From contig NW_024704742.1 of NCBI RefSeq assembly GCF_018977255.1, positions 8,434,001-8,498,000 of the forward strand: 64,000 bases of DNA, read 5' to 3'. Positions within the stretch are counted from its first letter, which is position 1. Each line of letters opens with the position of its first letter. Origin of the DNA: Callorhinchus milii (taxonomy: Eukaryota). Below, piece after piece: positions 929-64,000 of this stretch. The position numbers and the translations under genes are program-made. The notes under the pieces are model-generated. The model saw only the letters and a program-made list of their open reading frames with translations, searched no databases and was not told where the DNA came from.

Positions 929-949
929 AAAGTGAAAGTGAAAGAAAGT
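929..949 (+). promoter_or_regulatory. IRF-binding / ISRE element upstream of APOL-A
   Basis: AAAGTGAAAGTGAAAGAAAGT matches the IRF (GAAANN)n consensus. It lies ~80 bp upstream of a donor site at 1025/1026 that is conserved in the paralogue at 59589/59590. Confidence 0.6.
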
Positions 950-979
950 TGTGTTGTAAATTTGCGCACACCTTTATGC

Positions 980-1025
980 ATGTCATGTTCAGCCGGTCAG
1001 TCACACAGGTCACCCAGGCTACCAG
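980..1025 (+). other. APOL: Putative non-coding exon 1 of APOL-A (5' boundary approximate)
   Basis: Donor CCAG|GTAAATGGG at 1025/1026. Same donor in the duplicate (59589) and a similar one in APOL-C (TAG|GTAAATGG on the minus strand at 50426). Confidence 0.45.
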
Positions 1026-2126
1026 GTAAATGGGTTGTTTGTTGCTGAACTATCAATGTTAACAATTTGTATTGTCTCAGCACCTAGTGCTGTAACCAGG
1101 AGTAACTTTTACTGATGTTGAGGAACAGAGAGATCGTAAGGATATGTAGGTTAAAGGTTTAAAAGAGAATAAAAAGACAAATTAAGTTGTGCTTTGTAGT
1201 TATTGACTGTAAAGCAGAAAGTGCTTACTTCATTAGTTAGAATAGTGTATGTATTATCACAGCCACAGAGAGGCTATGGACGGCATTGATTCTCAAGGGG
1301 AATGAATATCAGAGTGGAGGTTTATATGGAGTATAAACACCAGGCTATGGACTGAATGGGCAGTGTCTGTGCTGTAATGCTCTATGTAATTCTATGAGCA
1401 GCCGTGGTTTCAGGAGAGGCTCAACAAATTGGGGTTGTTTTTGGTGAGACAGAGAAAAGATGCGATAGAGGACTTAACAGAGGATAGAGGAATTTCCTCT
1501 CCCCATGGATGCTGCCTGACCAGCTGTGTGTTTTCAGCCACTTCTGTGTTTATACCAGATTTCCAGCATCGACAGTACTTTGCCTTTTGTTTGGAGGATT
1601 TAACATTCTGAAACAGATTGTGAGGTTAAACAGTAACAGATTATTGCTGATCAGTGCACAGTGATACGTGTGATGTGTGGTTGAGGCCTGTGTTCTGTTA
1701 CTATTATGGATATAGGGTTTGGTTACAGATTATCAAACCCCCTCAGAAACCATTTTACACTTCATTTGACTTTGTCTGACTGTGTCTAAAAATGGCTGCT
1801 CTTCAGCCCTTCAGGGTGTGTTGACTTCCTGTAGTGAATAATCATCAACATCAACCTGACTCGTCCAACCAGACAATAGAAAACCTGTTCATATAACAGA
1901 AAAACTGGAATGGACAATAGAAAATTGAAGTTGCATCCATCAATGTCATCAGGCTCCATTGTCTCTCTGTCGCCCAATGTACAAATCCCGGTGTGGCCGC
2001 ACTCCGCCTTAACTATCTGGATCTCTATTCAGCCACTACATCCCAAAACTCTGGACTACACTCCCTCAATCCCTCCGCCTTGCCTCCTCTCTCCCCTTTT
2101 TCAAGTCTTGCCTGAAAACGTTCCTT

Positions 2127-2760
2127 TTCAACCATGCATAAGGTTACCTCCCCCACTGCCCCCCAACCTGCATTGAACTGTTGAAAATTTCCCCTCATCC
2201 AGAACTTGATGTCCGACAGACTGTCTGTCAGGACAGCAGTGGTCCTGGAGTTGAGGGTGGAGAAAGATAGAGTTGGGTGTCATCTGCATACATATGGATG
2301 TTGACCCCATGTCTGCGGATGATGTCACCAAGGGGGAGCATGCAGATGTTAAAGAGGAGAGGGCCAAGGACAGAGCCCTGGGGGACGCCAGACGTGACAG
2401 TGCGGGGGCTGGAGGAGAAACCGTTAGAGGCAATGGTGGAGACGGTGTGAGAGATTGTAATCAAACCAGGCAAGGGCAGGTTTGCGAAGATTAAGTAAAG
2501 AGGAGAGGCAGTGTATGAGGATAGAGTGGTCAACAGTGTCGAAGGCAGCAGAGAGGTCGAGGAGGACAAGGAGGCAGAGGGAGCCCTGATCACAGATGTT
2601 CAGAATGTCACTAGTGACTTTGACCAGGGCTGTTTCTGTGGTATGGGCAGTGTGGAAGTGTGGATTGAAAGGGGGGAAAGGTATGTGAAAACCTTCAGAA
2701 TTACTGGAAATCTCCTGTAAGCAGGGTGGCTCCCTCCAGGGAGTGTGCACTTTCCATTCC
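2127..2760 (-). mobile_element. L2 LINE reverse-transcriptase fragment
   Basis: Minus-strand ORFs contain [34 protein letters not shown] and YADDTQLY, with frameshifts. Confidence 0.9.
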
Positions 2761-2950
2761 AATTTACAAGAATTTTCATATATAGCTAGAATTTGGTAGA
2801 TCGGGTTTTAAGGTTTATGGGGCAAGGGTGGATAATTGGACTGGAGGAACAGATCAGCCATGATCTTATAGAATGGCAGAATGGGCTTGAGGGACTGAAT
2901 GAATAGAGATGCACTCCTGTAATATTGATTTCCTTTACCTCTTCAGAAAC

Positions 2951-3035
2951 ATGATCGTTGAGGTTACAGGATCCTGGTCTAATCTCATCGTTCTCTTCCT
3001 CTTAGTCCTTCTGGCAGCATGGTTTCTCATGTCAG
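2951..3035 (+). CDS. APOL: APOL-A first coding exon (hydrophobic leader MIVEVTGSWSNLIVLFLLVLLAAWFLMS)
   Basis: Acceptor tttacctcttcAG at 2946, ATG at 2951, donor CAG|GTAAGG at 3035/3036. 85 nt, phase 1; joins in frame to the micro-exon and terminal exon. Paralogous exon at 63604. Confidence 0.65.
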
Positions 3036-3799
3036 GTAAGGTTTCACGATGATTTCCAGTTTATGAAAACTGCTGAGGGATGTTCAAATACAGACAAACT
3101 GCAGCAATGACTGGATTGTGCAGAAGCCACGAACACCTATCGTAATCCCATTCATACACTGCCCGGAGTAGGATCCCTATCCCTTTCCATCAGCTTTGAA
3201 CACCCAATGAACAGGGTCAGCAGCTCAGTGAAGACCTGAGTCATGGCTTCCTCCTCTATTGAAGGTGTCAGATCTCATTTCTTCATCCGGTGTCTTGAAG
3301 ATATGGACTGGCAAAGCTGACACTGTAAGAATTCTCAGCCCTTTTATCCAATCACACATGTTTTTTTCCCCCATATTGGGGTCCATTCCTCATTCAGTCA
3401 CTGACCTGTGGTGCCTGTCTTAGCCCAGTGTTCATGGATAGTAAAATTCCACGGAACTATTTGAAAAGAAAAGTGAGTTTCTCCTGGTGTCCTCACTAAC
3501 AATCCCCCAAATAAAATGAGTCATTCACTTCACGGCTGTTCGTGGCATTGCTGTGCACAAATTGACTGCTGCATTCACCCACAAAATACACAGCAACTCT
3601 GATTTACCTTATATCCTTTAAAGCACTTTGAGACATTCTCCAAATGTGAAAGGTGTTAAATCAAATGCAAGGATTTTTGTTAGTATGCTCTATGTTGGAC
3701 AACTTGTCGCTCAGCCTTACTGTTTGATAGAGCATCTGTGAATGTTGTGTTGTGGACAGTATTTCTGTACCACAAACTGAGGAATTCTGATTGTTTCTT

Positions 3800-5310
3800 T
3801 CCATACTTGAACAGTTAGGAATATTGGAACACCTCCACAACTCCCTCTCCACCTCTCTTGATGCCCTTGTCCCCCTCATTTCCTGAACTATCTCCTACTC
3901 ACGCAAGTCCCCGGTACACCAGCCACCTCCACTCCCTCAAGGCACAGGTGCGTGCTGACAAGGTGACTTGGACCAAACACAATGCAATGGTCCATTGGCA
4001 GATCTGGCTGGACCACATCAAAGCCTACCATTCTGCCCTTGCCTCAGCTAAATCGTTCTCATATTCCAAGATAATCTTTGAGGCCAACAGTCTCAGGCTC
4101 CTCTTCTTCACCACCCTTTCATGATTCACCCATCCTATCCTCCAATGCCAACTGCAAGGAGATGCTGGACTTCCTCAAAACCAAATTTAAGGGGATCCGC
4201 TCAGCTGCTTCTGCCCTTACAATTACTACTCCCTCCATATCCCCCTCACACCCTGGGGCCCTACCCATCCTTCCCTCCACACCTTCGAACCTGTCTCCCC
4301 CTCCTCTCCCACATTATGACCGAAATGAAACCCACCACCTGCTCTCTTTGGCTACCTGTGACCAAGACTCCCTCTGTCTCCTCATTCTCCTTGACTTCTC
4401 TGCTGACTTTGACATGCAAAGTGTTCTGTGAAACACTTTGAGATGTCTCGAAGACGTGATAAGGTGCTATATCAAATTCAACGATTATTATTATTGTTGA
4501 CCATTCTATCCTCCTCCCCTGCCTCTCGTTTGGTGAATCTTCATGATCCTGTCCTTGCCTGATTCAAATCTTATCTTTCCCACAATTTCTACTTGAACTT
4601 CTACTTCTGCATGAACGGCTTCTCCTCCAGCCCCCACATCTGTGTCCCTCTGGGCTCTGCCTTTGGTCCTCTCCCCTTCAATATCTACACGCTCCCTCTT
4701 GGTGTCGTTATCCGCAGACATGGGGTCAACTTCCACATATCTCTGCCTCCACCCTCGACTCCAGGACCACTGCTGTCCTGATGGATGGTCTGTCAGACAT
4801 CGAGTTCTGGATGAGAGCTAAATTTTCTCCAATTGACTGTCAACAAGACCAAGGCCCTCCTGATTGGCTCCTATCAGTGCCTTTTCACCTCAGGCACTGA
4901 CAGCATCACTTTCCAAGGATGCCACACCACCTCACTGAGTCAGTCCAGGACCTTGGCATCTTGTTTGACCCTCAACTATTCTTTATTCCTCACATCCGTG
5001 CCATGACCCATTCTGCCTTTCCGCAACATTGCTCTGGTGTCTCTCCCCTCAGGCTGCTAAGACCCTTGTCTATACATTCATCACATCCAAGTTTGATTAT
5101 AATGCTTCTCGTTGCTTGTCAGCTCCCCAGCTCTTCCCTCTACAAGCTGTATATTATTCAGAGCTCTGTATAATTAGATTACACTGCTGGAGAGGATAGA
5201 GTTCTAAATTCTCGTCCTTGTTTTCAAAGGCCTCCACGACCTTCCTCCTTCCTACCTCTGTGACCTATTCAGCCAATACCAACCTGTCCGCTCCCTCCAA
5301 TCAGTGGACT
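3800..5310 (+). mobile_element. Degenerate L2 LINE ORF2, interrupted by a SINE 3' fragment (~4410-4495)
   Basis: L2-like peptides (HSALASAKS..YSKII, CDQDSLCLLILLD, DLGILFDPQL) in shifting frames. Confidence 0.8.
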
Positions 5311-5314
5311 CTGG

Positions 5315-5890
5315 CCTACAACCCTTTGTGTGAAAAAGTGCTTCCTGATTTTGTTTCTAAATGGCCCAGCTCTAATTTTAGGATTATGTCCCCTTGTTCC
5401 AGTTTCCCCCACCAGAGGAAATAGTTTCTCTGTAGCAATCCTATCAAATCCCGTCCTCATTTTAAACACCTCAATTGGATCACCACTCAACCTTCTAAGC
5501 TCAAGGGAATGCAGAACAACATGTCCTTATAATTTAGCCCTTTAAGCCCTGATATAATTCTGGTGAACCTGCGCTGCACCCCCTCCAGAACCAAAATATT
5601 TTTCCTGAGGAGTGGTACCCAAAACGGAACGCTGAACTCCAGATGGGGTCTGAATAAGACTAGATAACTGACAGTGCTCTAACCACTGAGCTACATGACT
5701 CCACAAATATACCGTCAATTCACTTTACAGTCTATTCTGTGAAGTGTTTGAGACATTGAGAAGACCTGAAAAGCACTATACCAAATGCAAGGATTATTAT
5801 TATTATTAGATAGTTGAAGCATCATTTCCTCTCCTTTATATTCCAGCCCCCCTTGTGATAAAGAACAACATCCCATTAGCCTTTTTGATA
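5315..5890 (-). mobile_element. CR1 3' fragment with an internal SINE remnant (~5672-5808)
   Basis: ORF 5269-5490 (GDxIEVFKM...LFPLVGE...RKHFFTQRVV) is CR1 ORF2 C-terminus. Confidence 0.8.
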
Positions 5891-6089
5891 ACTTTTTGTA
5901 CCCGAGGGGTGAAGTTTGTTCACTCACGGTCAGTTATTGTTGAAGGACATTGCCAAGAGTAGAATATTTGACAGAGTGATAATGAATGCAATAATATAAC
6001 ACCCCAATATTGTGGTGGTCAATGAGTATTCTGTCATGTTCACTCTATAATAACCAGCAATAATGGTTTGTTTCTCAATTGTTTAACAG

Positions 6090-6114
6090 ACAGTAAAGGA
6101 TGCAATGAAGACAG
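6090..6114 (+). CDS. APOL: APOL-A 25-nt micro-exon (DSKGCNEDR)
   Basis: tttctcaattgtttaacAG|...GACAG|GTACGT. Length 3n+1 converts phase 1 to phase 2 exactly as needed. Equivalent micro-exons exist in APOL-B (25 nt) and APOL-C (28 nt). Confidence 0.65.
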
Positions 6115-6274
6115 GTACGTACAAATATGAGGCAGTTCCTGAATAAACTGCCTGATTTTGTGAATGAATCTCTTCTTCTCATCTCTCTGCATTGCTCTCT
6201 GTTTGATCGTGTTTTTTCTATATTTCACCAAAGTCTGGGTTGGGTTGTAGGCATCACGGTCAGATATTGTTGTG

Positions 6275-6620
6275 GGACCCTGCAGGGAGTAGAACATAGG
6301 ACCCAGGTTCGATTCCTGGGCAGGGCAAACATTTAGGCAAGTTTCCTTACTCCACACACCTTTGTTTAGTTATCAGTAAATAGGGACCTGGTTGTTAGAC
6401 AATTGGTGGATTGCTTTCTGGGGGTAATAATCTCTCAATTTAAAAAAAATTGGTCACTCAATCCACAACTGTTTGTGGGATACTGCTATGTGCAACTTAC
6501 TGCCACATTTTTCCCACAAAATATACAGTTAATCCACTTTTCAATATAATCTGTGAAGCATTTTGAGATGTCTTACTGATTGATAAGCACTATATCAAAT
6601 GCAAGGATTATTATTAGTAA
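6275..6620 (+). mobile_element. Older diverged tRNA-Deu SINE copy
   Basis: B-box-like ggttcgattcc, gcaagtttccttactccacac, Deu-like core and caaatgcaaggattattatt tail. Confidence 0.7.
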
Positions 6621-7399
6621 TACAACAACAACAACAAGATTTCATTTATAGAGCGCCTTTCACACCAGGAGGACGTCCCATGGCAGTTGGGTCGGGACCC
6701 GAGCTGGGGGGAAATGGTCAGGGTGAGGGGAGGGAAGGGAGGGAGCGAGGAGGGGAGGGAAGGGGGGGAGCGAGGAGGGGGTAGAGAGTCGAGAGGGGAG
6801 CTGAAGGCACGGTCAAAGAGAAAGGTCTTGAGACCGGCCTTGAAGGAGGAAAGGGAGGAAGCAAGGCGCAGTAATAGTAATATTTGTCAATATAATTAAA
6901 ACATTGAAAGTTTCCTTTTTCACCCCAACATTAGAAAACTAACTTCTGATTTTGGAGATCTAAAACTACATTTAAGAAAATGCTCCTGTTATCATGCTAC
7001 CGTGTTTTGCCCACAAAACATAGTCAAATCGATTTATAGTATATTCTGTGAAGTGCTTTGAGACATCTAGAAGATGTGAAAAGGCGCTATATCAATGCAA
7101 GGATTATTATATTTTGTTATTACCATTGAAGTGGTTTTATTATGGTAGAAGAGCAAATTAAGTTGCATGAATTTAATGTTAACATCAACAACTTGGATTT
7201 ATATAGCGCCCTTCACATGGAATAGTGTCTCGGAACTCTTAACAATGGCAAAGCCTGACGCATATTCGGGGGGGAGAGAGGAGGTGACCCTAAGCACGGT
7301 CGAAGAGGAAGGTCTTTAGTCATGTTTGAAAAGAGGAGAGGGGACAGCAGTGGGGTTGGGGAAGTTGGCTTTGTTGACCTTGCTTTTGAAGGTTCATTG

Positions 7400-9659
7400 A
7401 CATTGCCGGAGCATGGCATTCTATGTTTGATTTACACTGAGGACTGATATGTCTCGATTTTCCACATTGGAAACAAACCACTTGTTTCTTTACACTTACG
7501 GTTTCTCCCTTCTTTAATAATAATAATAATAATAATCCTTGCATTTGATATAGCGCTTTTCACGTCGGGAGGACATCCCAAAGCGCTTCACAGAATATAC
7601 TGTAAAGTGAATTGACTGTATATTTGTGGGCGAATGCGGCAGCCAATTGCGCACAGCAATGTCCCACAAACAGTCGTAGATTGAAAATGACCAATTTATT
7701 ATTGTTTTTGGTTTTGGAGGGATTATTATTAGGCTCTGTGTGGAGTAAGGAAACTTGCCCAAGGTTTCGCCCTCTGCCTGGAATTGAACTCAGGTCTCTC
7801 ACTTGCAAAGCGAGTGCTCTAACCACTGAGCTACAGGACTCCAAACCACTGAGCTACAGGACTTCTTGGAGGTGAAAATTTGGGTTTCCATTTCCAACCT
7901 GTGAGAGTCCCTCATTTTTCCACATCATTCTGGGTTTATTTTCCACCAATGTATTTCCTTTATGGCTTCTTAAATTTTCTTTCTCACCCTGTCTTACTCC
8001 CACTTCATTACCATTCTCCTTGTGATCTACGCCTCATCATAGTACTGATTGTTCCTATCCCAGCTTTCTTCAAATCTAGACTTGTACGGTGGTAAGGAAT
8101 GGGTAATGATCATTCTGTGCTATTCTGCAAAGTGATCCAGATTATTATGGACCAAATATTCGATATTCAAATAGTTCCCATTGTCTGTCTTTATAACATT
8201 TTGGATGTTCTCCTGGTATTTGTCTGCAATGCTCCAATACTGTATTGGGATCTCCTTTATCATATCCTATGGCATTTAAGATGTTTCCTTGGAAGTTGGC
8301 AGAACGCCTTTCCCATATTTCATGTCCACTGATAAGGTTTTAAACATTGTTGTGGACAATATCGCTACTAGTAACCTGAAATGTCCTTTATCATCACATC
8401 ACGTGTATTTTGTATAGCTCCGCGCTCTGCCTCATTAAATGATTAAAGGCATACGGTTTTCCAACAAATTTGAGAATGATATTTGCCATTACTTGTAGTT
8501 GCATTGTGTCATATGGTATTTTTACTCGAGCTACCTCTTCATCCTCGCCATCTGGGTTAGGTTTCAATTTGTGTTGAGGGGTTGGATACAATGACAAGGC
8601 TTTCACTTTTCAGTATTTGGGAGTAAATTCCCATCTTGATTCAGCAGTTACTGTGTCCAGTCATGGTATTGATTATACCCCTCTTAACTCTTTTCCTTGA
8701 ACATATTCAAGACTGAGATAGATAGATTTCTTATTGCAAAAGGGATTAAGGGATATGGGGATAAGGCAGAGTCAGGTTATTAGCTGGAGTTAGGTTAGAA
8801 GATCAGCCATGATCTAAGGGCCGAATGGCTTACTCCTGCTCCTACATGTTATGTTAACTGTGTGCTGTTCTTGTATTTTTTCTATTTCTTTTTGGGATGC
8901 AACGTGCGATTCCCCTTTCTGGCTTTTTGTGACAGAGCTGCTTGCACTCTAATTACAGTGTGTAAATCACTGTTCTGTTGTTCAAGTTGTTTAATATTTT
9001 GCTCTTACATTCATTTATCTTGTCACCCCATTCCTGCACTTGCCTCAAAATATTAGTTGCCTGTGCCTGATAATATTTGGTGTAAACTTCTAAACTTTGT
9101 ACTCTCCGCATCTAAAAGATTCAATTTCTTCCCTTCTATTTGAACTGTTCTCTTTGCAGATTATCCCTAAAATCAATCATTTGGTATTCGGCCTCTTGGA
9201 CTCTTTTTTACTGTTTATCCAGTTTTGTTTGAGCTCCATTTGAGTTTCTTTCAACTCTCTTACCTCTGTTTCCAGGGTTTCTTTGAACCCTTTTAAATCT
9301 CTTAATTCTCTGATTTCAGAGATCTGTATTTAGAAATCTGCAAGGTTTTAATCCATGCAGCTTCAGTTCAGTTATTCTTTTATCCTTTTTATTTTTTTAT
9401 TCTTTTATCTCTTAATTCTGCAACAATTCATCCATATGTCTCAATCGGAGTGTCACTGGTAGTGCCTCCTTAAAAAGCTCCACATGTTCAGGTAACCTTT
9501 TCTCCACATATGCTCTGTTTGAATCTGCCATGTTTTTAGAATACTTTTTCTAATTCTCCAACTGTTCTAAACGTGACAGGTCTAATACTCAATTTCTAGA
9601 CAATATTAAAATTTGTATTTGTCCAACTTCAACAGCACAGGTTCCCTGTTTGGACACCA
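7400..9659 (-). mobile_element. Decayed LTR retroelement/ERV internal region (PBS + gag) inside an APOL-A intron, split by a SINE (7515-7861) and a CR1 3' end (~8700-8835)
   Basis: Minus-strand TGGTGTCCAAACAGGGAA (9659-9642) resembles the tRNA-Lys3 PBS TGGCGCCCGAACAGGGAC. Disrupted ORF follows from ~9530, with a CCHC zinc knuckle CFQCGKSRHISPQC at 7475-7434. Confidence 0.65.
7515..7861 (-). mobile_element. Full-length tRNA-Deu SINE with duplicated 5' head and 6-bp TSD
   Basis: tRNA-like head GGAGTCCTGTAGCTCAGTGGTTAGAGCACTCGCTTTGCAA, Deu-like core TTGCTGTGCGCAATTGGCTGCCGC and (ATT)n tail. CTTCTT on both flanks (7509-7514, 7862-7867). Confidence 0.9.
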
Positions 9660-10133
9660 ATTATAAGCGTTATTTAAATTTGTGACCCTGCGGTGAAATA
9701 TGAACTGACATAAATTCCTATTTAAGTAGTAAAGCTTAATAAATAATGAGTAAGATTCTACAGAATCAAAATTATACATCAAATCAAATTAATTCTCACA
9801 ATACAAACTACAAAACAAAATTACATTTGTAAAACACCTTTCACTTTCCCAAGACGCTGAACAATCAGGGGTTAGGGATTTGCGATGAGGACCCGAGAGG
9901 GGGTGGGCTGGGGGGATCAGAGAAGGTGGAGGGTAGGGAGGGTAGGAGGTTGGCTGAAGGCACGGTGGAAGAGGAAGGTCTTGAGGCATGCCTTGAAAGA
10001 GACAGGGAGAGACTTGCAGGGAATTTGGGATGGAGTTTCAGAGGGTGGGATGGGTTGGGTGGGGAATGTGGAGCAGGCTAGAAAATGCGTTAAAGTGTCA
10101 AAGGCAAAAGTTGAAGGGAGCTAGAGTAGTAAT

Positions 10134-10665
10134 GGAGTCCTGTAGCTCAATGGTTAGAGCACTCGCCTTGCAATATAATAATAATAATCCTTGCATTTGA
10201 TATAGCACTTTTCACGTCTTCTAGACGTCCCAAAGCGCTTCACAGAATATACTGTAAAGTGAATTGACTGTATATTTGTGGGCGAACGCGGCAGCCAATT
10301 GAGCACAGCAATGTCCCACAAACAGTCATGGATTGAAAATGACCAATTTATTATTATTTTTGTTTTGGAGGGATTATTATTAGGCAAGCAAGAGACCTGG
10401 GTTCAATTCCAGGCAGAGTGAAACTTTGGGCAAATTTCCTTACTCCACACGCCTAATAATAATCCCTCCAAAACAAAAGAATAATAAATTGGTCATTTTC
10501 AATCCACGACTGTTTGTGGGACATTGCTGTGCGCAATTGGCTGCCGCGTTCACCCACAAATATACGGTCAATTCACTTTACAGTCTATTCTGTGAACCGC
10601 TTTGAGACGTCGAGAAGACGTGGAAAGCGCTATATCAAATGCAAGGATTATTATTATTATTATTA
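10134..10665 (+). mobile_element. tRNA-Deu SINE with a 5'-truncated antisense SINE (~10174-10385) nested in its tRNA head
   Basis: Head 10134-10173 breaks at TTGCAA, an inverted tail+core follows, and the head resumes at GCAAGAGACC ~10388. Confidence 0.9.
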
Positions 10666-10912
10666 ATGCCTGTGCCTCTGGAAAAGAAATATTTATTTTT
10701 GGAAATTTGTAAATCATCGTCTTCTGCTGCTCTCCTTGCTGGATCTCTCACTGCTTTGCTCACTTTAGCAAAAATATTGCGCCCTTTTTTGTTAAGCTTT
10801 AAGGTTTCAGCTCAAAACTATGTGTTGTTCTAAACTGTCATTTCGCCGACAATGTGTATTTATGTGAGAATTTATTTGAGAACAGATATCATTGTATTTA
10901 TTATATAAACAG

Positions 10913-12011
10913 GGAAGCCCTCGAAGCTGAGATGGAAAAGAGGATTGAAGAAGTGCAACGCTTTAAAGAGCTGTTTCCTGAATGGAAAAAAAAGATGAGG
11001 GAATACAAAGGAGCACTGTGCAATATTGCCGACAATATTGACACAGTTCACCAAGGTGCCACAATAGCCAACATTACAGGGTCCTCAATGGGTGCTGTCG
11101 GAGGAATTCTATCCATTGGTGGATTAATCGCTGCTCCTTTTACAATGGGTTCATCATTGGTGCTTGCAAGTTTGGGAGCTGGCATAGGTGTAGCTGGTGG
11201 TGTCACTAACATTGCAGCTAGTGGTGTGGATGCTTTTAAACAAGGGGACATAGCAAAACAAATAGATGAAATCATGAAACAATATAAAGAGGATAGTGCA
11301 GAAATGGCAGATTGCTGCGATCAGTGTGTTAAAACGATTCAATTCTTAAATCCCTGCCTTGATGGTTCAAATTGTACAGTGGAGAAAATAGCTGATACCT
11401 TAACAAAAAGGGTGATGATTCTTATTGCAGCGCACAAAGCAGCAAGCATAGCAGGGAGAGATGCAGCAAAGATAGCAGCAAATAAAGCAGTTAAAGAAGC
11501 AGCGAGGAAATCAGCAAAAGAAGCAATTAGGAAAGCAGCGAAAGAAGCAGCAGGTAAAGCAATGAGGAAAGCAGCGAAAGAAGCAGCAGGTAAAGCAATG
11601 AGGAAAGCAGTGAAAGAAGCAGCAGGTAAAGCAGTGAGCAAAGTAGCGAAAGAAGCAGCAGGTAAAGCAGTGAGCAAAGTAGCGAAAGAAGCAGCAGGTA
11701 AAGCAGTGAGCAAAGCAGCGAAAGAAGCAGCAGGTAAAGCAGCAGGTAAATCAGCAGGTAAAGCGGTGGCCAGAACCATGAGCAAACGAGCATTAGGCAC
11801 ACTGGGTCTGTCAGGACTCCTTGTTGGTTGGGATATCTATTCTATAGTAAAGGATTCCTTGGAACTTGCAGAGGGATCGGGGACACAACTTTCTAATCAG
11901 ATCCGAAAATTGGCCCAACAGATGGAGGATGAAGTAAAGATTTATGAAAAGCTTTATAATCCTCTAGAAGGTATTGCAGTGAATGATGCAGGGTGGAAAC
12001 AGCCCAACTAG
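10913..12011 (+). CDS. APOL: APOL-A terminal coding exon: apolipoprotein L domain with an inserted Ala/Lys-rich repeat
   Basis: APOL hallmarks: IADNIDTVHQGATIANITGSSMGAVGGILSIGGLIAAPFTMGSSLVL and C-terminal WDIYSIVKDSLELAEG...QIRKLAQQME. Acceptor AG at 10911-10912 (phase 2), TAG at 12009-12011. Spliced CDS 85+25+1099 = 1209 nt. Confidence 0.92.
11532..11747 (+). repeat. Coding minisatellite: 6 x 36 bp (12 aa, KAAKEAAGKAMR/KVAKEAAGKAVS), with degenerate flanks ~11440-11770
   Basis: Unit aaagcagcgaaagaagcagcaggtaaagcaatgagg recurs at 11532, 11568, 11604, 11640, 11676 and 11712. Confidence 0.95.
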
Positions 12012-12658
12012 TCCTGAGGATGAGATTATGTGTGTCAAAGGGTCTTCTTCATCTTAAACTTTCGAGTAAGTGAGCGAGTGAGTGAGGCAGTGAGTGAGGC
12101 AGGGAGGGAGGGAGTGAATGAATGTGTGAGGCAACGGGCAAGTGAGGGAATGAACGATGGAGGGAGTGAGGCAGTGAGTGAGTGAGCGAATGTTTGAGCG
12201 TAAGAGTGAAGTACATGAGCCCGCCTGTCCCTTTCCTCTCTTCTGTACCCCTATTCCTTTCTCTACTATGTATGAATCAAGTTTTCTCTTGAATAGATTG
12301 GTGCTTTCTGCTGCAACCATAGCTTCCGCAGTGAGTTTGACATTCTCACCATCCTCTGTGTGAAGAAATCCCCCTAAACTTTGTTTAACATCTCCTGCTG
12401 ACTATTTTAGATGTATTTCCTGTAGTTTTGGACTCACTAACACGTAAAACATCAACATCTAACTCATCAACTAATTTAATAAACTAAAACACCTCCATTA
12501 GCTTCACTCTCAATCATCTCAACTCGAGAGAGAAAAGTTTCAAACTGTCTAGTCTTTCCTGATAGTCATATCCACTCATCCCTGGGAACATCCTTATAAA
12601 TTATGACATCCTAGTAAAATTACAGTGCGACAGGAAAGTGAATCAATCAGGTGGCCCA

Positions 12659-12763
12659 GGGGGAGGGACAGAGGAACCATGTCCCTCTGTACAGGCCTGG
12701 GCGGCCTTGTTAATGATAGGACACTGCCTCTGTAGAGGGAGATGTTTCCTCTGTCCCTCCCCC
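12659..12763. other. Hairpin (~35-bp arms) in the APOL-A 3' flank; identical copy at 31527-31631
   Basis: GGGGGAGGGACAGAGGAACCATGTCCCTCTGTACAG pairs with CTGTAGAGGGAGATGTTTCCTCTGTCCCTCCCCC (2 mismatches, 2-nt bulge). Confidence 0.75.
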
Positions 12764-16290: not shown

Positions 16291-16369
16291 CTGGACCCCA
16301 CCGCATCCTTACCAGCCATTGCCTCCTGCCATTGCAGATAGTGACCTGCACAGCTGATTCAGAGAAGCG

Positions 16370-50425: not shown

Positions 50426-50595
50426 CTACCGGATTTGTTGACAGATTTGTTGGCTGGTTGGAGTATGGTCTATGTTGCTGTCTGTGTCACTGCCTGGCTC
50501 TGTTGCTGCTTAGTTAAAGCTGTTTGGTAACTGAGTAACCTATAATGACCAGCATCTGCTCTATAAACATGCTTCTTGCACTTTCATGTTTACTA
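50426..50595 (-). promoter_or_regulatory. Putative APOL-C promoter and non-coding exon 1
   Basis: Minus strand AAACATGAAAGTG (IRF-like half sites), TTTATAG, then donor TAG|GTAAATGG at 50426 resembling the APOL-A exon-1 donor. Confidence 0.35.
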
Positions 50596-52569
50596 CAACC
50601 AATGAGAATTTGCACAATGAACACATGAAGCCATAAATTCCTCCAGAGCTTATCTGAGATATCTGTAAACAACAACAATTTATGTTGATGATAAACCCTT
50701 CACATTGGGAGGAACCAGAATTAAGCTGTACAAGGAACCAAGTGCAAAGGTGGTGAATGAATTGAAAGTTTGTTATTGGTAAGATTGAGAGGACATGTTG
50801 CAAGTCCAGAAAGTGCTGAGAAAAGCACATGTACAGTCACGGCCAGTTACAGTGCACTAGGCCATTCAGCCCACTGTGTCTGTAAGTGCTCCGGGATGCT
50901 ACCCTGCATGAAGGATGCTGTATAATTGCAAGTTGTTGTTGTTGTCCTGCTGCTGCCTCTTCACAGGAGCTATCAGCTCTGATCCCATAATCCCCCACAA
51001 ACACCCAGTCACTGCACTTTACAGTGAAGTGTAAAGTGCTCTGTGCATCTCAGTGAGCCAGTCAGGAACCTAGGCTTGTTTACCCTCAACTGTCTTTTCT
51101 CCGGCATCTCTACCATGAACTGCGCTGCCTTCCCCAATCACCGCAACATTCCCCGGCTCCGCCACTGCCTCACCCCTCAGGCCATTGAAACCCTCATTCA
51201 CGGGTTCATAACATCTAAACTCGACTACACCAATTCTTGACCTTTCCAACTCTTCCCTCCACAAGCTGCAGATCATCCAGAACTCTGCAGCTCGTGTCCT
51301 CTCCCTATCAGGCTCTGTGACCTCATCACCTCCACCCCCACCTGACTCCACTGGCTCCACATACCCCAGAGGATAGAGTTCAATATCCATGTCCTCGCCT
51401 TCAAGGTACTCCATGGCTTTGCCCCTCTTTACCTCTGTGACCCTATATTAACCTGTCCATTCCCTCCACTCAGCAGGCGTTGGCCTAATCCAAGACCTCC
51501 ACCCGGCCTGACCCACCATCACCAGTCAGGCCTTCATCCTCTCTGCCCCCATCTTTACGAACTCCATCCCACATTCCCTTCGCCACGCTCCCTCCCTTGC
51601 CTCCTTCAAGGCATGTCTCCTCTTCAACTGTGCCTTTGCTCACCCTCCTACCATCCACCTTCTCTTAACCACCCCTCTCCAATGCTCGAGGTCAAATTTC
51701 TGACTGTCCAGTGCTTTGCGACGTCCAGCTGACATAAAAGGTGCTACATACACCCATTCTGTGCCTGTTTGTGGGACACTGCTGTGCGCAAACTATCTGC
51801 CGTGTTTTGTCCACAAAATACACAATAAATCCATTTCACAGTATATCCTGTGAAGCGCTTTGAGATGTCTCAACAATATAAGTTGCTTTACATCAAGGAT
51901 TATTATTATCTCCAGCTCCAAACACGAGGAGGGGGAGGCTCAGGACAGGGCGGCAGCCAAAAAGCGCACGCAGAGCCTGGGAGCGAGCAATCAGTGGAAT
52001 GACATCAGCCCTCAGGCTGAACCTCCCAGGTTCTACATTTTTTTAAAAAAATTTTTTTATATAATTTTTTAACTATGACGTTACGCCGACATCACTTTGT
52101 GAATCGCGCCGCCCCGTCTCTTACCCCTCCCCGCCCCCCACCCCGCCCTCTCCCACCCTGCGCTCTCCTACCTCTGCTCACGACTGAGTGGCTCCTCACC
52201 TGGCTGTGCTTTTATACACAGCCAGGCCTCGGCTCCGCCCCGCGCTCTCCTACCTCCGCTCCCGATACCAGGAAAGACTAGACAGTTTGGAACTTTTCTC
52301 TCTTGAGTTGAGATGATTGTGAGTGAAGCTAATGGAGGTATTTTAGATTCTGAAAGGATTTAATAAGTTAGATGTTGATGGGTTGTTTTACCCTGTCATC
52401 CACAGACACAGGTTAAACTTACACGTGTATGTGGATGACACACAAATCTACTTTGCTTCCTCCAGCATTGACTCCAGGTCCACCGATATTCTATCAACTT
52501 TGCTGGCAGACTTCAGAGCCTGGATGAATTCAAACTTCCTGCAGCTGAATATGGACAAGACAGAACAAT

Positions 52570-54802: not shown

Positions 54803-55094
54803 AATAATAATAATAATCCTTGCAATTGATATAGCGCTTTTCACGTCTTCTAGACGTCTCAAAGTGCTTCACATAATATACTGTAAAATGAATTGACTGT
54901 ATATTTGTGGGCAAAATGCGGCAGCCAATCGCGCACAGCAGCATCCCACACACAGTTGTGGATTGAGTGGCCAAATTATTATTGTTTTTTTCTTGAGGGA
55001 TTATTATCAGGTGTGTGGAGTAAGGAAACTTGCCGAAGGTTTCATCCTGCTGGGAATCGAACCCAGGTCTCTTGCTTGCAAGGTGAGTGCTCTA
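54803..55094 (-). mobile_element. tRNA-Deu SINE
   Basis: Reverse complement of the consensus; absent at the paralogous site (~26255). Confidence 0.88.
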
Positions 55095-55499
55095 ACCACT
55101 GAGCTACAGGACTTCATGAGATATGATATATATGATATGAGATATTCTCCAAGAGAGTTGAGAGTTGGTAGTTCTCGGTCTCACTAGGGTCACCTTTCTT
55201 GTGGATGGACACCACAGTTGGTACACTGAAGGTGTGTGTGCCTCAAGCAGAATCATGTAGATCAGCACTGGGAGGGCAGCTCCAAGGCTAGTTGGCGATT
55301 CCTGGCTTTGATCCTCATCGCATCATCCCTGCGACCATCGCCCATGTCCCCCCTCCCCCCACCCAGCAGGATCTCAGCATTAATTCTTAGTATGATATAT
55401 TTATATACTAAACATGTTTATACATATATAATTGTTCAGCTGCTATTATAATATTGTGGGCCTCTTTATGGAATAGATATTACAGTATGGAGAGGATGC

Positions 55500-56390
55500 C
55501 TTGTAGGTTCCCAAGACGGCTAAGGCAGTCTATCAAATGCAAGGATTATTATTATTATTTATTGAGTAACTCCTTTCACATTTCATCACCAACGTTGCTT
55601 AATTTGTAAATGTTTATGGAGTCACATGTTCACTTATGTAATTGGTTACAGTGAAAGTGAAAGTGAAAGGAATGGTGGGTTATATATTTGCTGATCTCAT
55701 TGCAGCTGACTTAGAATTTTCCCATTGCATCACCAGCCAGTTGGTCATCCAGTGCCCCAGTCAGTAACCCAGCTAGAGGTCAGCAGCCAGTTGGTCATTC
55801 AGTTGCAGAGTGACCCATCCAGTGACCTCACCATCAATCCAGAAAAAAAGGAAGAAGATTTGAGGTGAGATTGAAAATTTCAGACTTTTGTCTGAACTTG
55901 TCTCTATGAATTATTGTGTGTTTACTTTACTATCCTGGTCTTAGTGTCTGTCTTGTGTGGGTGCTCAAGTTGGACTATTGCACTGTTGAGGATTTCTTTG
56001 TATCACAGAGTGAGTGAGGATGTGATTACTGATACTCCAGTAAATGTGAGGCTGAGCAAGAACAAAGATAATTCCCAATCTCTGAGAGTCCACGGGACAC
56101 AGTACTAGGCTGGCATTTAGAATATGTGTGTGTTTGTTGGGCACAGTGTCTGTGTGTTGGGGATGGTGTCTGGGGGAGTGTGTGTTGAGGACAGTGTCTG
56201 TGTGTGTATGTCTTGGAGACCGTGTCTCCAAGACATACACACACAGACACTGTTTGTTGCAGCAGTGTTTGTTTTGGGGACAGTGACTGTGTATATGTGT
56301 AAGTTCGTGGGGTATGGCATCTGTATGGCGTCTGTCTGTGTGTGTGTTGGGAATGGTGACTGTGTGTGTGTATTGGGGATGGTGTCCTTG
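55500..56390 (+). pseudogene. APOL: Orphan inverted copy of the APOL-B promoter, exon 1 and intron, lacking the ATG exon
   Basis: Reverse-complement match to ~25115-25960 (ISRE 55649-55670, TATATAT ~55681, donor 55864), joined directly to the inverted CA minisatellite (56124-56385). Confidence 0.7.
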
Positions 56391-57745: not shown

Positions 57746-59410
57746 TCTACTCAGTGTCTACTTTATCCAGCCCTTTAAGAATATTATATGTTTCAATAAG
57801 ATCTCCCCTAATTCTTCTGTACTCTAGAGAATACAGCTCTACTTTATTCAGCCTATCCTCATAGGTCAGTCCCCTCATCCCAAGCACTAACCTAGTGAAT
57901 CTACGCTGCCCCCCTTCTAGGGCAAGTATGTCCTTTCTTAAATAAGGAGACCAAAACTGCACACAATACTCTAGGTGTGGTCTCACCAAGGCCCAACACA
58001 GTTGCAGCAAGACTTCCCTACTCTTGTACTCTAAACCTTTTGCAATGAACACTAACATGCCGTTCGCCTTCTTAGTTGCTTGCTGCACCTGCAAACTAAC
58101 TTTTTGAGACTGGTGTACAAGGACACCCAAATCCCTCTGAACACTAACACTATCTAATCTCTCCCCCTCTAGAAAATAATCGTTTTTTCCATTTTTTGCT
58201 ACCTAGGTGAAAAACTTCACACTTCCCCACATTAAATTCCATCTGCCACCTACTCGCCCACTCCCCGAGCCTATCTATATCCCATTGCAATCTTTTTGCA
58301 TCATCCTCAGAGCTTACTCTCCCACCTAGTTTAGTGTCATCCGCGAATTTAGATACGTTACATTCAATGTCCTCGTCTAGATCATTGATGTAAATTGTAA
58401 ATAGCTGAGGCCCAAGCACTGATCCTTGTGGCACTCCACTAGTCACATCCTCCAATTCGAGAATGACCCGTTTATCCCTACTCTCTCTTTTCTACCCGTT
58501 AGCCACTCTTCAATCCATGCTAATATGTTCCCATTAATCCCGTGGGCCTTAACCTTGTGCAATAGCCTTTTGTGTGGCACTTTGTCAAATGCCTTTTTAA
58601 AATCTAAATATACTACATCTACTGGTTCCCCCCTATCTAACCTGCTAGATACGTCTTCAAAAAAAAAGATTAGTTAAGCATGACTTCCCTTTTGTAAAGC
58701 CATGTTGACTCTGCCTAATCTTGTTATGGTCTTCCAGGAATCCCATAATGACATCTTAATTAAGGACTCAAGAATTTTCCCTACCACTGATGTCAGACTA
58801 ACTGGTCTATAGTTCCCCATCTTTTCTCTCCCACCCTTCTTAAATAGTGGTGTTACGTTTGCAATCTTCCAATCAATGGGAACCGTTCCAGAATCCAGAG
58901 AATTTTGGAAGATCAAAGACAAGCCATCCACTATCTCAGTAGCCACCTCTTTTAAAACCCTAGGATGTAGGCCATCAGGTCCAGGGGATTTATCAGTTTT
59001 AAGACCTGACAATTTACCTAAAACCATTTCTTTACTAATATTAATTCCCCAAGTTGCTCGCTAACATTGTCTTCTCGGTCCCCCTCTATTCTTGGTAGGT
59101 TTTCAGTGTCTTCTAAAGTGAAGACAGTAGCAAAGTACTTGTTTAATGACTCTGCCGTGTCTTTGTCCCCTACTATAAATCCCCCTGTCTCTGCCTCTAA
59201 TGGACCCACATTTACCTTTGACAGCCTCTTCCTCTTTATATATTTGTAAAAACTCTTGCAGTCTGTCCTTATGTTCCTCGCTAGTTTGCCCTCATATTCC
59301 ATTTTCTCCTTCTTTAATCACTTTTTTGGTTCTCCTTTGTTGATCCCTAACGTTCTCCCAATCCTCGGGTTTACTACTCATCTTAGCTGTTTACTACTCA
59401 TCTTAGCTGT
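57746..59410 (-). mobile_element. Relatively young CR1 ORF2 fragment (RT domain)
   Basis: Consecutive ORFs with [48 protein letters not shown] and RPHLEYCVQFWSP; few frameshifts. Confidence 0.93.
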
Positions 59411-59429
59411 TCCTGAATCTTGGTGGTAT

Positions 59430-60515
59430 TGTTAGAATAAAATGAGATAATTTCATACGCTAATTGGTTATAGAAACACTCTAGTGAAAGAAAGTTGTGT
59501 TGTAAATTTGCCTACAACTTATTGCAGCTTAGGTAGAATTCCTCCTGTGTATTCAGCCGGTCAGTCATACAGGTCACCCAGGCTCCCAGGTAAATGGGTT
59601 GTTTGTTGCTAAACTATCAATGTTAACAATTTGTACTGTCTCAGGACACCTAGTGCTGTAACCAGGAGTAACTTTTACTGATGTTGAGGAACAGAGCCAT
59701 CACATGGAGTAGATATGTAGGTTAAAGGTTTAAAAGAGAATAAAAAGACAAATGAAGTTGTGAGGTTTATATCCAGGAATATTGACTATAAAGCAGGAAG
59801 TGAGAACTTTATCCAGGACATTAGTTAGAATATTGTGTGTATTTTTACAGCTATAGAGAAGCTATGGATGGCATCGATTCTCAAGGGGAATGAATATCAG
59901 AGTGGAGGTTTATATGGAGTATAAACACCAGGCGAAGGACTGAATGGGCAGTGTCTGTGCTGTAATGCTCTATGTAATTCTATGAGGAGCCGTGGTTTCA
60001 GGAGAGGCTCAACAAATTGGGGTTGTTTTTGCTGAAACAGAGAAAAGATACGATAGAGGACTTAACAGAGGATAGAGGAATTTCCTCTCCCCATGGATGC
60101 TGCCTGACCAGTTGTGTGTTTCCAGCCACTTCTGTGTTTATACCACATTTCCAGCATCGACAGCCTTTTGTTTAGAGGATTTAACATTCTGAAACAGATT
60201 GTGAGGTTAAACAGTAACAGATTATTGCTGCTCAGTGCACAGTGATAAGTGTGATGTGGGGTTGAGGCCTGTGTTCTGTTACTATTATGGATATAGGGTT
60301 TGGTTACAGATTATCAAACCCCCTCAGAAACAACTTTACATTTTAAACAATTGACTTTGTCTGACTGTGTCTAAAAATGGCTGTTCTTCAGCTGTTCAGC
60401 GTGTGCTGAGTTCCTGTAGTGACTAATCCTCAACATCAACCAGACCAGCCCAACCAGACAATAGAAATCCTGATCATATAACAAAAAAACAGGACTGGAT
60501 GATAGAAAACTGATG
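59430..60515 (+). repeat. Direct segmental duplicate of ~878-1930 (APOL-A promoter, exon 1, intron 1)
   Basis: Colinear high-identity match including the donor at 59589. ISRE is shortened to AGTGAAAGAAAGT (59483-59495). Confidence 0.9.
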
Positions 60516-60680
60516 TAAGTTGCTCACAATGTCTTTTTAAGGCCACATCATCACCCCTGTCCCTATCTCATGCCTAATGCAGCTGAAACCCTGTTACATG
60601 TCTTCATTACCTTGAGGATTCATTGCCTTTGCCAATGCCTTCTTTGACAGGTACTCTGTTCTATCATCCCCAAGCTCCAG

Positions 60681-61663
60681 CATTCACCAAAATAACGTTG
60701 CGTAGATTTTTTTGAAAAATATCGAGTTCAATATAATTTACAAGCCAAATGATACTTGTTTTTGTTCAAGATGCACAGAAATACCATCACATCAAAAATC
60801 AAATAAATTGTTTTAATGTAACAAATCTGAAGTAAAATGATATTTGCTATGATTTTTACATCAATATCCACAGAAAGAGCCTCATTTTGTAATCGCTGTA
60901 AAATATCAAATAAAATAAAATTTTGAATGTTTAATGTACAAAAGTAGAATAAAATTAGATTCGATACGATTTTTCCATCAAAATAATACATCGCATGGAT
61001 TTTCTGTAATAGTATTGAGTGAAATAAAATGTTTAGTTTTTTTATTAATAAGAAATCTTTTTAAATAAGAATTCAAATGAGTTGGTCACAAACATGCACC
61101 AAAATAAAATTGCCTAGATTTTCTGAAAAATATTCAGTGCAATTAAATCTTAATTGTTATAATGATATTTGATACGATTTTCCCATGAACATCCTCATAG
61201 AAAATGTTTTTTTCATCGTTGTAGAATATCAAGTGAAATAAAATGTCAAGTTTTTAGTAGCACCATTGCGAAATAAAACAACATTCATCAAAATAACGTT
61301 GCGTAGATTGTTTTAAAAAATATCGAGTTCAATAAAATGCTAAGCCAAATAAAATTTACAAGCCAAATGATACTCGTTTTTGAACAAGATGCACAGAAAT
61401 ACCTTTGCATGAAAAATCAAATACAATTGTTAAAATGTACAAATCTGAAGTAAAATGATATTTGATGCAATTTTTACATCAATATCCATGGACAGAGCCT
61501 CATTTTGTAATTGCTGTAAAATATCGAACAAAATAAAATTTTGAATGTTTAATGTACAAAAATAGAATAAAATCAGATTCGATGCGAGTTTTTTTGTCAA
61601 GTTTTTAATGGTACATTTGTGAAGTTAAATAACATTCACCAAAATAACGTTGCGTTGATTTTT
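60681..61663. repeat. AT-rich tandem element, ~601-bp unit (one full, one partial, start of a third)
   Basis: cattcaccaaaataacgttgcgtagatt at 60681, 61282 and 61633, with a diverged sub-copy at ~61094. Confidence 0.85.
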
Positions 61664-63603
61664 GTCGCTGACTTCCTTACCCTTACAGCACCTTGGGATG
61701 TCCTCCTGATGTGAAAGGCATATAAAATGTGTAAAATGTAATTTTGTGTTGTATTACCCGCACAAAGCTTCTCACGTCCATCAACGTCAACAGGCTCAAT
61801 TGGCTCTCTGTCACCCAATGGATTGACTTAAAGATGCTCAACTGCAAATCCCTGTGCGGCTGTACTCCACCTTAACTCTCTGTACCGCTCCCACTTCCTC
61901 ACTCCCCAACCCACCATCTGGCACCTCTGCACGACTGACACTGGCTCATCCCTCACACCCTCCGCTTTCAGCCACTACACCCAGAAATTTTGGAACATTC
62001 TCCCTCAATCCCTCCGCCTTGCCCCCCCTCTCCCCCTTTTCAAGTCCCACCTGAAAACCTTCCTTTTCAACTGTGCTTATGGTAATCTCCAACCCCTCTC
62101 GGCTCGGAGTCAGGCTCCATCACTGTTAAGAACAAGTTGTTGTTGTCGACCTTTAGCTGACTGACAACCTTGCTCTCCAAGACACTACCCAGTGTGAAGC
62201 CACAAAAACAATTGTAGTCGTTTTTGTGGCTTGACTCCTCCATACACATAAAGTATATTGCCTAGGCAAGAATTTAATTTTTTTCCTGTATCATTCATCC
62301 CAACATGGATTCTAACCATTGGATATTCTCATAACCACTAGAATATTAACACAGTTTGCTCCGATGTGTTCCCTTTCCCCAGCACCGGAGAGGGAACTCA
62401 CCATAAGGGCTTACAGATCATATTTACTAACCTGCCTGTCTGTCTGTCTGTCTGTCTGTCCTTCTGTCTGTCTTACACACCACAGAAATTTTGACACAGT
62501 CAGTGACTATTCGATCCATTGGATAGGTGTTGGTGTTTACTCTTCCAATGAAGCCTCAAAGCAAATCACAATTCCCTGTTCTCCCCCTGTATCACCTAAT
62601 ACCCCTCTCTGTATGAGCCAATTAAATAAGCGCTCTGAGATTCTACCTGCGTAAAGGATGGTGTAGCAAGCTGTTGTTGTTGATTCCCTTTTAAATATCC
62701 CAAAGGATTGGGACCCTTGGAAATTAATTGCGTATTCCCACAGCTCTCTAGGAGGAGTGGGAATATGCAATTTACCTCTAATTCCCCCTTTCATATACCC
62801 AGTTTAGTCTTAAATTCACACCCTTATTCACCTGCAAAGCACAGTCACTCCACTTTACTGTAAATCCTGTGGAGTGCTTTGGGACGTGAAAGGCAAGTAA
62901 CAGCAACTTGCATATATATAGCCCCCTCTCATGCAGGGTAGCTTCCCAGGGCGCTTGACAGTAGCGGATCACGATGCCCAGCCAAGGGGAGGGAGGAGGA
63001 GACCATAAGCACGGTCAAGGAGAAAAGTCTTCAGCCATGACCTAAGATGGGAAGAAAGAGGTAAGACAGAGTGAGTCATACCTCAAAACTAAGCTACTGT
63101 TGATAAGTAGTAGCTTGCTGCATAAGTTTTAATGTACAGTATATAATAATAATCCTTGCATTTGATATAGTGTCTTATCATGTCTTTGAGACGTCTCAAA
63201 GCACTTCACAGAATATACTGTAAAGTGAATGACATAGACAGGATCCTATTTCACCATTTTCTAGACATTATCGAGGACGAGGGAATGAATATGTTGAGTA
63301 TTTGTTCAAACATCCAACTTTTGAAAGTAGCTATTTTGAAGATTTGCTAAAGCTTTGAGAGGGAACACAACTCCGAGCAGAAAAGACCAGAGCAAATAGT
63401 CTCTTTCAACACAAAGCACCTGTGCAAAATGTCTGAATAACAAACCAATGAAATCACATTTGTGGATGTGATGGCCTTTTCTGGAGGCAATAGGAGGAAT
63501 AATTGACAATAATGCTCTGGTCAAGACTTTCCTTCAGTCACTTGAGTGCTAACAGAGACTTGGTGGTACCAATGCTCACCCTGCCCTGCCACATGCTCTT
63601 CAG

Positions 63604-63712
63604 AAACATGATCTTTGAGGTTTTAGGTTCCTGGTCTGGACTCATCGCCCTTTGCTTCTTATTCCTTTTGGCAGCATGGTTTCTCATATCATGGACTCAT
63701 TCCAGTTTATGA
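63604..63712 (+). pseudogene. APOL: APOL-D leader exon (paralogue of 2947-3035) with the splice donor lost; duplication continues to the window end
   Basis: ctcttcAG|aaacATG ATC TTT GAG (MIFEVLGSWSGLIALCFLFLLAAWFLIS). GTAAGG donor is absent and the frame runs to TGA at 63710-63712. 63690-64000 matches ~3050-3353. Confidence 0.65.
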
Positions 63713-64000
63713 AAACTGCTGAGGGATGTACAGATACAGACAAACTGCAGCAATAACTGGATTGTGCAGAGGGCATGAACATCTATTGCAATTCCATTCA
63801 CCCTCTTCCTGGGGTAAGATCCCTATCTCCTTCCATCAGCTCTGACCCCCAATGAGCAGGGTCAGTACCTACATTGAAGACCTGAGACATGGCTTCCTCC
63901 TCCATTTAAGGTGTAGGATCTCATCTCTTCACCCAGTGTCTTGAAGCTATGGACTGGCGAAGCTGACACTGTAAGAACTCTCAGCCCTTTTATCCAATCA

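Follow-up and report, generated by a model that had tools for sequence, protein, structure and literature searches.

The stretch of DNA analysed here, 64,000 nucleotides (nt) from the elephant shark Callorhinchus milii (NCBI RefSeq assembly GCF_018977255.1, contig NW_024704742.1, positions 8,434,001 to 8,498,000, forward strand) and referred to below as the window, is part of a row of genes of the apolipoprotein L (APOL) family, known for immune proteins that damage membranes, and comprises two intact members (genes A and C), one broken member (gene B) and three decayed remnants (D, E and F). Six-frame translation and self-comparison of the window revealed three long exons with similar products, located at 10.9-12.0 kb on the plus strand and at 18.35-19.09 kb and 39.85-40.57 kb on the minus strand, which the original prediction, made from the sequence alone, had read as APOL-domain terminal exons of a cartilaginous fish. 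Both parts of this reading hold. The Pfam ApoL profile (PF05461, curated cut-off 25.9 bits) matches the terminal exon of gene A with an E-value of 1.5e-36 (126.8 bits), that of gene C with 1.1e-26 (94.5 bits) and that of gene B, split over two frames, with 1.7e-20 and 1.7e-15 (74.1 and 57.7 bits), and the predicted product of gene A is identical to a C. milii RefSeq protein. A six-frame search with a profile built from 15 chondrichthyan-type APOLs found ApoL coding at only four places in the 64 kb, namely in A, B, C and D (30.3-30.8 kb). The window thus shows the tandem clustering and large last exon (721-1099 nt in A, B and C) by which the APOL family is recognized, and the combination of lineage-specific duplicates with pseudogenes that defines birth-and-death evolution.

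Gene A lies on the plus strand and consists of four exons: the coding part of exon 1 (976-1025, 50 nt, phase-2 donor at 1026), which matches the RefSeq N-terminus; exon 2 (2947-3035, 89 nt, phase-1 donor), which encodes a strongly hydrophobic segment at residues 28-46; a micro-exon (6090-6114, 25 nt) followed by a phase-2 acceptor; and the terminal exon carrying the ApoL domain (10913-12011). Spliced together they encode 420 amino acids that are letter for letter those of XP_042194187.1 (P0001). Gene C, on the minus strand, has a start-codon exon (46565-46680, ATG at 46673) that encodes a weakly hydrophobic N-terminus and is also present in database model P0039, a 28-nt micro-exon (41234-41261) and an open terminal exon (39852-40572); splicing 46673-46565, 41261-41234 and 40572-39852 yields an open frame of 285 residues; aligned to an older database model, the product agrees at 260 of 280 residues. 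Compared with ours, the database model corresponding to gene C (XP_007909632.1) carries additional exons, both terminal and internal. A tentative candidate for a non-coding exon 1 of gene C (50425-50520, minus strand) was chosen by eye from its A-like donor. Gene B, likewise on the minus strand, corresponds to XP_042194193.1 and comprises a start-codon exon (24280-24333, ATG at 24301, phase-1 donor) and a 25-nt micro-exon (22656-22680), both of which align with the N-terminus of its paralogue NP_001279577.1 (P0160), followed by the ApoL-coding terminal exon (18350-19089), which is frameshifted at 18862-18864. Upstream we placed an inferred non-coding exon 1 and promoter (25554-25814).

The architecture that had been proposed for these genes, in which a phase-1 donor, a micro-exon and a phase-2 acceptor precede the terminal exon, is present in A, B and C, in every case with AG/GT ends. 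When both strands were scanned blindly for short exons with fitting phase, two candidates came up, which are the micro-exons of A and C; that of gene B was missed at the thresholds used. The accompanying claim that all three terminal exons splice in frame is correct for A and C but fails for B on account of its frameshift. Further features lie within or beside genes B and C: a possible extra exon in the gene C intron (46235-46298, minus strand), for which P0039 uses other boundaries; minisatellites of 18-19 nt (37 copies) in the same gene's intron at 41595-41735 and 42025-42692; a short CpG-rich stretch at 52080-52260 (15 CpG, 66% GC) about 1.7 kb upstream of the gene C candidate exon 1; and a 24-nt minisatellite of 22 copies in the gene B intron at 23475-24038.

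The terminal exon of gene A is set apart by a 36-nt tandem repeat (11437-11764), which runs for 8.5 copies to 11742 and continues with a 12-nt period to 11764, encoding residues 231-339. The predicted product is an alanine- and lysine-rich cationic amphipathic helix (42 Ala, 30 Lys/Arg and 9 Asp/Glu) with a mean hydrophobic moment of 0.37, against a maximum of 0.36 in 1,000 shuffles, a comparison that periodic repeats win easily. Because the repeat motif was found in only one of 207 proteins compared and the copy in remnant D carries only a few of its units, the expansion is probably recent. That this helix binds anionic membranes would be a guess. The hydrophobic segment at residues 28-46 reaches a hydropathy peak of 2.35 and, judged by hydropathy, is possibly a signal or anchor; gene C has a weaker segment at residues 2-20 (peak 1.61) and gene B has none.

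Remnants of further copies accompany these genes. At least three broken APOL copies in both orientations had been predicted, and three remnants do exist, but all are on the plus strand; D contains ApoL coding, whereas the pieces at 55.6 and 59.4-64 kb (E and F) are duplicated 5' ends. In remnant D (30232-31649), an A-type acceptor is followed by a 343-nt deletion, after which the remainder of the gene A terminal exon and its 3' flank are present as a copy with frameshifts. The deletion removes the start of the exon, and with it the first helix and the hydrophobic hairpin; the acceptor is kept (30232-30305) and aligns to its A-type counterpart with a score of 54, compared to a maximum of 39 in 200 shuffles. 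Remnant E (55168-56116) is an inverted copy of gene B from the promoter through exon 1 into the first part of intron 1, and we found no start-codon exon in it. Remnant F (59430-64000) is a copy of gene A exons 1 and 2 that has lost 7 nt of the promoter element described below, the exon-1 ATG and the exon-2 donor; since it runs off the end of the window, its exon 1 could serve a gene further on. The six-frame profile search detected no ApoL domain in E or F within the window. With DNA identities of 80% (A/D), 88% (A/F) and 90% over aligned columns (B/E), and with lesions in B, D, E and F, the window contains both the recent duplications and the losses that the original prediction of birth-and-death evolution had called for. 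Two observations concern the surroundings of these remnants: broken frames at 28690-29330 (plus strand), directly before D, resemble a decayed capsid-side fragment of a retroelement, of which the tested piece has no Pfam match, and a block of 73% AT at 60660-61670 in the first intron of F, with an internal direct duplication of 300 nt, is probably the remnant of a DNA transposon.

Immediately upstream of gene A lies a tandem interferon regulatory factor (IRF)-binding element made up of two GTGAAA units (930-943, plus strand, 88-96 nt before the exon-1 donor). IRF1 recognizes GTGAAA/AAGTGA repeats and counts APOL1, APOL3 and APOL6 among its targets according to the source from which we took the motif definition (PMC7819612). 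A tandem element is likewise found at gene B (25802-25814) and three GTGAAA units occur in remnant E (55651-55668), so that an IRF-type element is located near the inferred first exon in three of five cases (A, B and E). The doubled unit GTGAAAGTGAAA has four matches in the window, all four within 261 nt of the exon-1 donor of A, B or E, where 0.11 would be expected; allowing one mismatch gives six matches against 0.17 in shuffles, for a pattern that was chosen after being seen. The promoter regions of A and B align with each other and with those of E and F (E-values of 1e-6 to 0.008), the exon-1 region of gene B matching that of gene A at 0.008 and that of F at 1e-5. By the alignment between A and B, this is one homologous IRF element, retained in two lineages with a protein identity of 47%. 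One further IRF-like match, at 34626, adjoins a short piece that recurs beside B and E, though on the opposite strand; we found no gene there and set it aside. An interferon link had previously been borrowed from mammals, and these putative binding sites lend it local support.

Four public sequencing runs (X1-X4) were compared with positions 900-19300 of the window. In gene B, a single extra base in the G run at 18862-18864 leads to a stop after 107 residues, and the RefSeq model, flagged LOW QUALITY PROTEIN, is frameshift-corrected and starts at an internal methionine. X3 and X4 span introns and behave like DNA. One X4 contig lacks the extra base (depth 15.5/15.5), and an X3 contig over the same site shows no gap, with counts flagged incomplete. 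Our first interpretation was that the contigs over gene B derive from the paralogue P0160, with which every one of the four amino-acid changes listed there agrees. P0160, however, differs from gene B at 13 residues in the span of the X3 contig and at nine in that of X4, most of them unlisted and only four of the 13 listed, whereas a different X3 contig has nine of its 11 differences listed. The contigs therefore look like alleles of gene B, and we dropped the paralogue as the leading explanation; that B is a segregating null has about even odds or a little better. A 19-nt deletion in gene A at 11796 (residue 351, depth 8.64/8.64) is carried by one X3 contig and is absent from X1, X2 and X4. 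With B open in one run and A deleted in another, loss of APOL copies may be ongoing. The three coding differences listed in gene A among the runs are all amino-acid changes and too few to weigh. As a separate observation, X3 contigs at 1288-8433 diverge from the window by 0.3-2.5% in patches (2/620, 11/449 and 15/601), which amounts to high and uneven variation around gene A.

The remaining two runs bear on expression. X1 and X2 cover the last exon of gene A and about 2.7 kb beyond it, and both have zero depth in an intronic bin (8882-9495) where X3 and X4 have depth. One X1 contig stops 18 nt past an AATAAA at 14682; the other RNA-like run stops elsewhere. This coverage pattern is a weak hint of a gene A transcript with a candidate long 3' untranslated region (12012-14700).

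The proteins themselves have the general anatomy of APOLs. For each of them we predict one long helix and then a hydrophobic hairpin rich in glycine, along with further helices and, at the C-terminus, a hydrophobic stretch plus helix. Hydropathy over the hairpin peaks at 1.5-1.75 in A, B, C and P0160, with invariant Gly, Pro, Thr and Ser columns, and a C-terminal segment resembling the SRA-interacting part is present: gene B matches the profile over positions 236-295 of 298, and A and C align with the conserved Asp, C being the most divergent. Pfam matches begin near position 40 of 298, and aligning our profile to the solved N-terminal domain of APOL1/APOL2 leaves a gap of about 30 residues. 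Searched against the PDB, the family profile returned human APOL2 and APOL1 as its top three sequences (E-values of 3e-12 to 4e-10), while a single-sequence PDB search gave nothing below 0.14. AlphaFold models of A and P0160 are all-helical at moderate confidence (mean predicted local distance difference test scores of 66.5 and 67.9), with the hairpin unresolved. None of 108 Foldseek matches reached an E-value of 0.001, Atlas structure matches had query-normalized TM scores of at most 0.30, and the best fold matches were designed helical bundles (Z 12.0, root-mean-square deviation 3.0 over 145 aligned residues; Z 10.3, 3.9 over 165), values in the common range for bundles. Separately, the hairpin region (profile positions 91-175) weakly matches two bacterial helical pore-forming proteins (E-values of 1e-5 and 3e-5), which may reflect shared hydrophobic composition, and five teleost proteins (P0008, P0020, P0176, P0179 and P0181) contain many ApoL stretches, 27 of them in a 5,937-residue pike protein, or ApoL-kinase fusions.

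Human APOLs are described as interferon-inducible proteins with pore-forming, membrane-addressing and SRA-interacting parts (PMC8557400), and APOL3 is reported to restrict cytosolic bacteria through attack on their membranes (PMC12482154). Pore- or detergent-like activity on membranes is known for human APOL1 and APOL3. Our preferred explanation, to which we assign a probability of roughly 0.68, is that the window is a slice of a larger tandem APOL array whose copies come and go through local duplication, in part inverted, and through decay, and whose intact members most likely act like mammalian APOLs. The family membership, gene structure, duplicates, lesions and promoter motif are observed directly; beyond them, we infer that interferon/IRF signalling would switch on A, C and, where open, B through the promoter element, that each protein would fold as a helical bundle hiding the glycine-rich hydrophobic hairpin, that the hairpin would insert into a pathogen or organelle membrane and permeabilize it, and that pathogens would drive the copy turnover. 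By homology, insertion of the hairpin into a target membrane is the most likely activity of the elephant shark proteins. A far bolder version would make this an interferon-controlled APOL defence locus dating from the first jawed vertebrates, with null and working alleles of A and B segregating under pathogen pressure and with gene A having independently gained a signal or anchor and a cationic helix of about 110 residues, turning it into a secreted or surface lytic factor convergent with primate APOL1; taken whole, we consider this quite improbable.

Several results weigh against the preferred explanation. No tandem IRF element occurs at gene C, and that of remnant F has lost half; with B and E counted as copies of one another, the motif comes from two lineages; exon 1 was positioned by eye in B, C and E; and a generic interferon-stimulated response element (ISRE) pattern is barely enriched across the window (eight matches versus 3.7 expected, equalled in 4 of 100 shuffles). 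With respect to the reads, the identification of X1 and X2 as RNA is a guess, no run recorded as RNA is among the public runs that contain this stretch, and the 15 joints listed of 6,434 for positions 900-19300 in the four runs include no splice junction, all 15 falling at repeats. The differences in gene A and gene B are seen in one contig each, 111 substitution and two indel rows went unseen, and the counts for X3 and X4 are flagged incomplete. Duplication as such needs no selective cause, since 57% of the window has a further copy within the window. Finally, dN/dS across paralogues, which the original prediction had proposed as a check, did not show positive selection: all eight pairwise values (NG86) lie below 1, at 0.38-0.77, indicating relaxed purifying selection on average and no proof of an arms race.

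The age of the cluster was addressed with two trees. In tree 1 (33 rows, 245 columns; three intended outgroups, P0183, P0186 and P0196, were left out when the anchor motif was not found in them), A groups with B and P0160 (94/91), and apart from these, C, P0158, P0017 and 11 elasmobranch APOLs of a 'long' type form a 14-row clade (97/99, or 98/98 under a second model); an approximately unbiased (AU) test against a single holocephalan clade gives p 0.041. In tree 2, which has other outgroups and differs from tree 1 by eight rows dropped and nine added (34 rows, 250 columns), 25 chondrichthyan rows are split from nine others, six of them named bony vertebrates, at 90/94. C. milii-only clades are formed by B with P0160 (100/98; 84% protein identity) and by C with P0158 and P0080 (100/100; 55%), A joins B and P0160 at 87/89, and the deep order collapses into a polytomy (AU p 0.057). 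Judged from these alignments, the tips of the tree are chimaera-specific, and A/B may have separated from C before the chimaera lineage arose. The earlier proposal that the locus diversified independently therefore stands with respect to bony vertebrates and for the tips, but possibly not for the A/B versus C split. An account built on that split, in which the two lineages parted before chimaeras and sharks did and have kept separate roles while only copies within each lineage turn over, is to us a serious possibility that falls somewhat short of even odds. The tree 1 clade and its AU test favour it, as do the higher dS between A and C (1.25) than between A and B (0.47-0.66) and the two supported groups of sharks and rays in tree 2 (98/96 and 96/91). 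It is weakened by the dissolution of the clade into a polytomy once other outgroups are used, by the AU value of 0.057 obtained with them, by the long stem of the C lineage (1.36-1.49) and by the fact that no elasmobranch protein directly groups with A, B or C in either tree. This account overlaps with our preferred explanation, yet it weakens the case for chimaeras having expanded the family independently.

A more sceptical account would treat much of the locus as neutral debris and assembly noise: the gene B frameshift would be a homopolymer error, D, E and F would have arisen as side products when repeat-rich DNA was duplicated, and the turnover would be drift under relaxed constraint. The position of the extra base in a G run, its correction by RefSeq and its absence from X4 fit a homopolymer error, the dN/dS values and high repeat content fit drift, and the X4 contig could derive from a B-like paralogue, the four changes seen over gene B all being those of P0160. 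Yet the X3 contig shows no gap at the same site (with the incompleteness already noted), the missing P0160 differences make the contigs look like alleles of B, and the IRF element has been kept between A and B despite their divergence; we regard this account as unlikely. We give still less credence to the proposal that these proteins act in lipid handling or in the vasculature, like APOLD1, and not as immune effectors. In some databases the name 'apolipoprotein L domain-containing 1-like' is indeed given to the C-like P0204 and to a gar protein, and our trees contained no verified APOLD1, but APOLD1 is, by published description, a highly conserved gene that lies outside the cluster (PMC8557400), whereas the genes here are fast-diverging tandem copies, with IRF elements at A and B and with nearest named relatives labelled APOL3/5/6-like.

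Much of the remaining DNA in the window is repetitive. Eight tRNA-like heads, seven of them Ala and one Thr (7769-7839, 27935-28004, 29417-29488, 31982-32051, 38506-38577, 43482-43551, 47634-47703 and 55042-55113), belong to a 300-nt repeat whose copies are up to 97% identical and often arranged as inverted pairs, which is to say a young family of tRNA-derived short interspersed elements. Decayed reverse-transcriptase pieces of long interspersed elements lie at 57750-59400 (minus strand) and 49433-50293 (plus strand; RVT_1, E-value 1e-9), and there are many shorter pieces elsewhere in the window.

The APOL family, its clustering, turnover and interferon control are already known from mammals, and A, B and C are already annotated: besides the models matching the window genes, RefSeq and UniProt contain, for C. 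milii, a B-like paralogue (NP_001279577.1) and two C-like models (XP_007883241.2 and XP_007910727.1). The entry for gene A is named 'uncharacterized', no C. milii model name mentions the promoter element, the repeat or the remnants, and we found no publication on chondrichthyan APOLs in the open-access literature. The tandem IRF-binding element upstream of exon 1 in A, B and remnant E and the repeat insert of gene A are new observations. For inexpensive experiments, the locus also offers natural promoters that have or lack the IRF element (A and F), compact APOLs of about 260 residues for work on mechanism and, possibly, null alleles that segregate. APOL relatives are present in databases from at least 13 shark and ray genera, and taken with them, a chimaera cluster bearing IRF elements suggests that APOL clusters, probably under interferon control, go back as far as jawed vertebrates themselves and have expanded repeatedly. 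One published account puts the age of the APOL family at about 300 million years and traces its clustered members to an ancestor of mammals some 70 million years ago, in a text whose available portion leaves sharks unmentioned (PMC8557400).

Among the closest known systems are the elasmobranch APOL3/5/6-like proteins, both 'short' (about 250 residues) and 'long' (about 300-390), which share 38-58% core identity and the same hairpin and C-terminal helix; the long type also has a basic central insert of 223-227 residues between anchors, compared to 232 in gene A, but this insert is unrelated in sequence to the gene A tandem repeat. Within the IFIT family, which has ISRE-bearing promoters, one report describes interferon stimulation, lineage-specific duplication with eight genes in the elephant shark, and zebrafish copies that lack the element and are not induced (PMC3688568); as a different protein family, IFIT is a precedent for the pattern only. 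Interferon control of an APOL beyond mammals is exemplified by zebrafish apol1, and one study counts APOL1 among the ancestral interferon-stimulated genes that zebrafish and human share (bioRxiv 10.1101/693333); there, induction was measured in a bony fish, whereas in the elephant shark the promoter motif alone speaks for it. A jawed-vertebrate age for APOL clusters fits what the zebrafish data implied and will be useful more than surprising to specialists. The clusters of human APOL1-6 on chromosome 22 and mouse Apol6-11 on chromosome 15 resemble the present locus in their PF05461 domain, tandem arrangement, large ApoL-coding last exon and lineage-specific copies (PMC8557400), and the human cluster does so in its IRF1-type control (PMC7819612). 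The elephant shark cluster differs in being a separate expansion, with no one-to-one orthologue shown, and in that positive selection has been shown for primate APOLs and not for these genes, whose activity is read from sequence. The elephant shark APOL locus thus extends a pattern known from mammals and is not new in kind.

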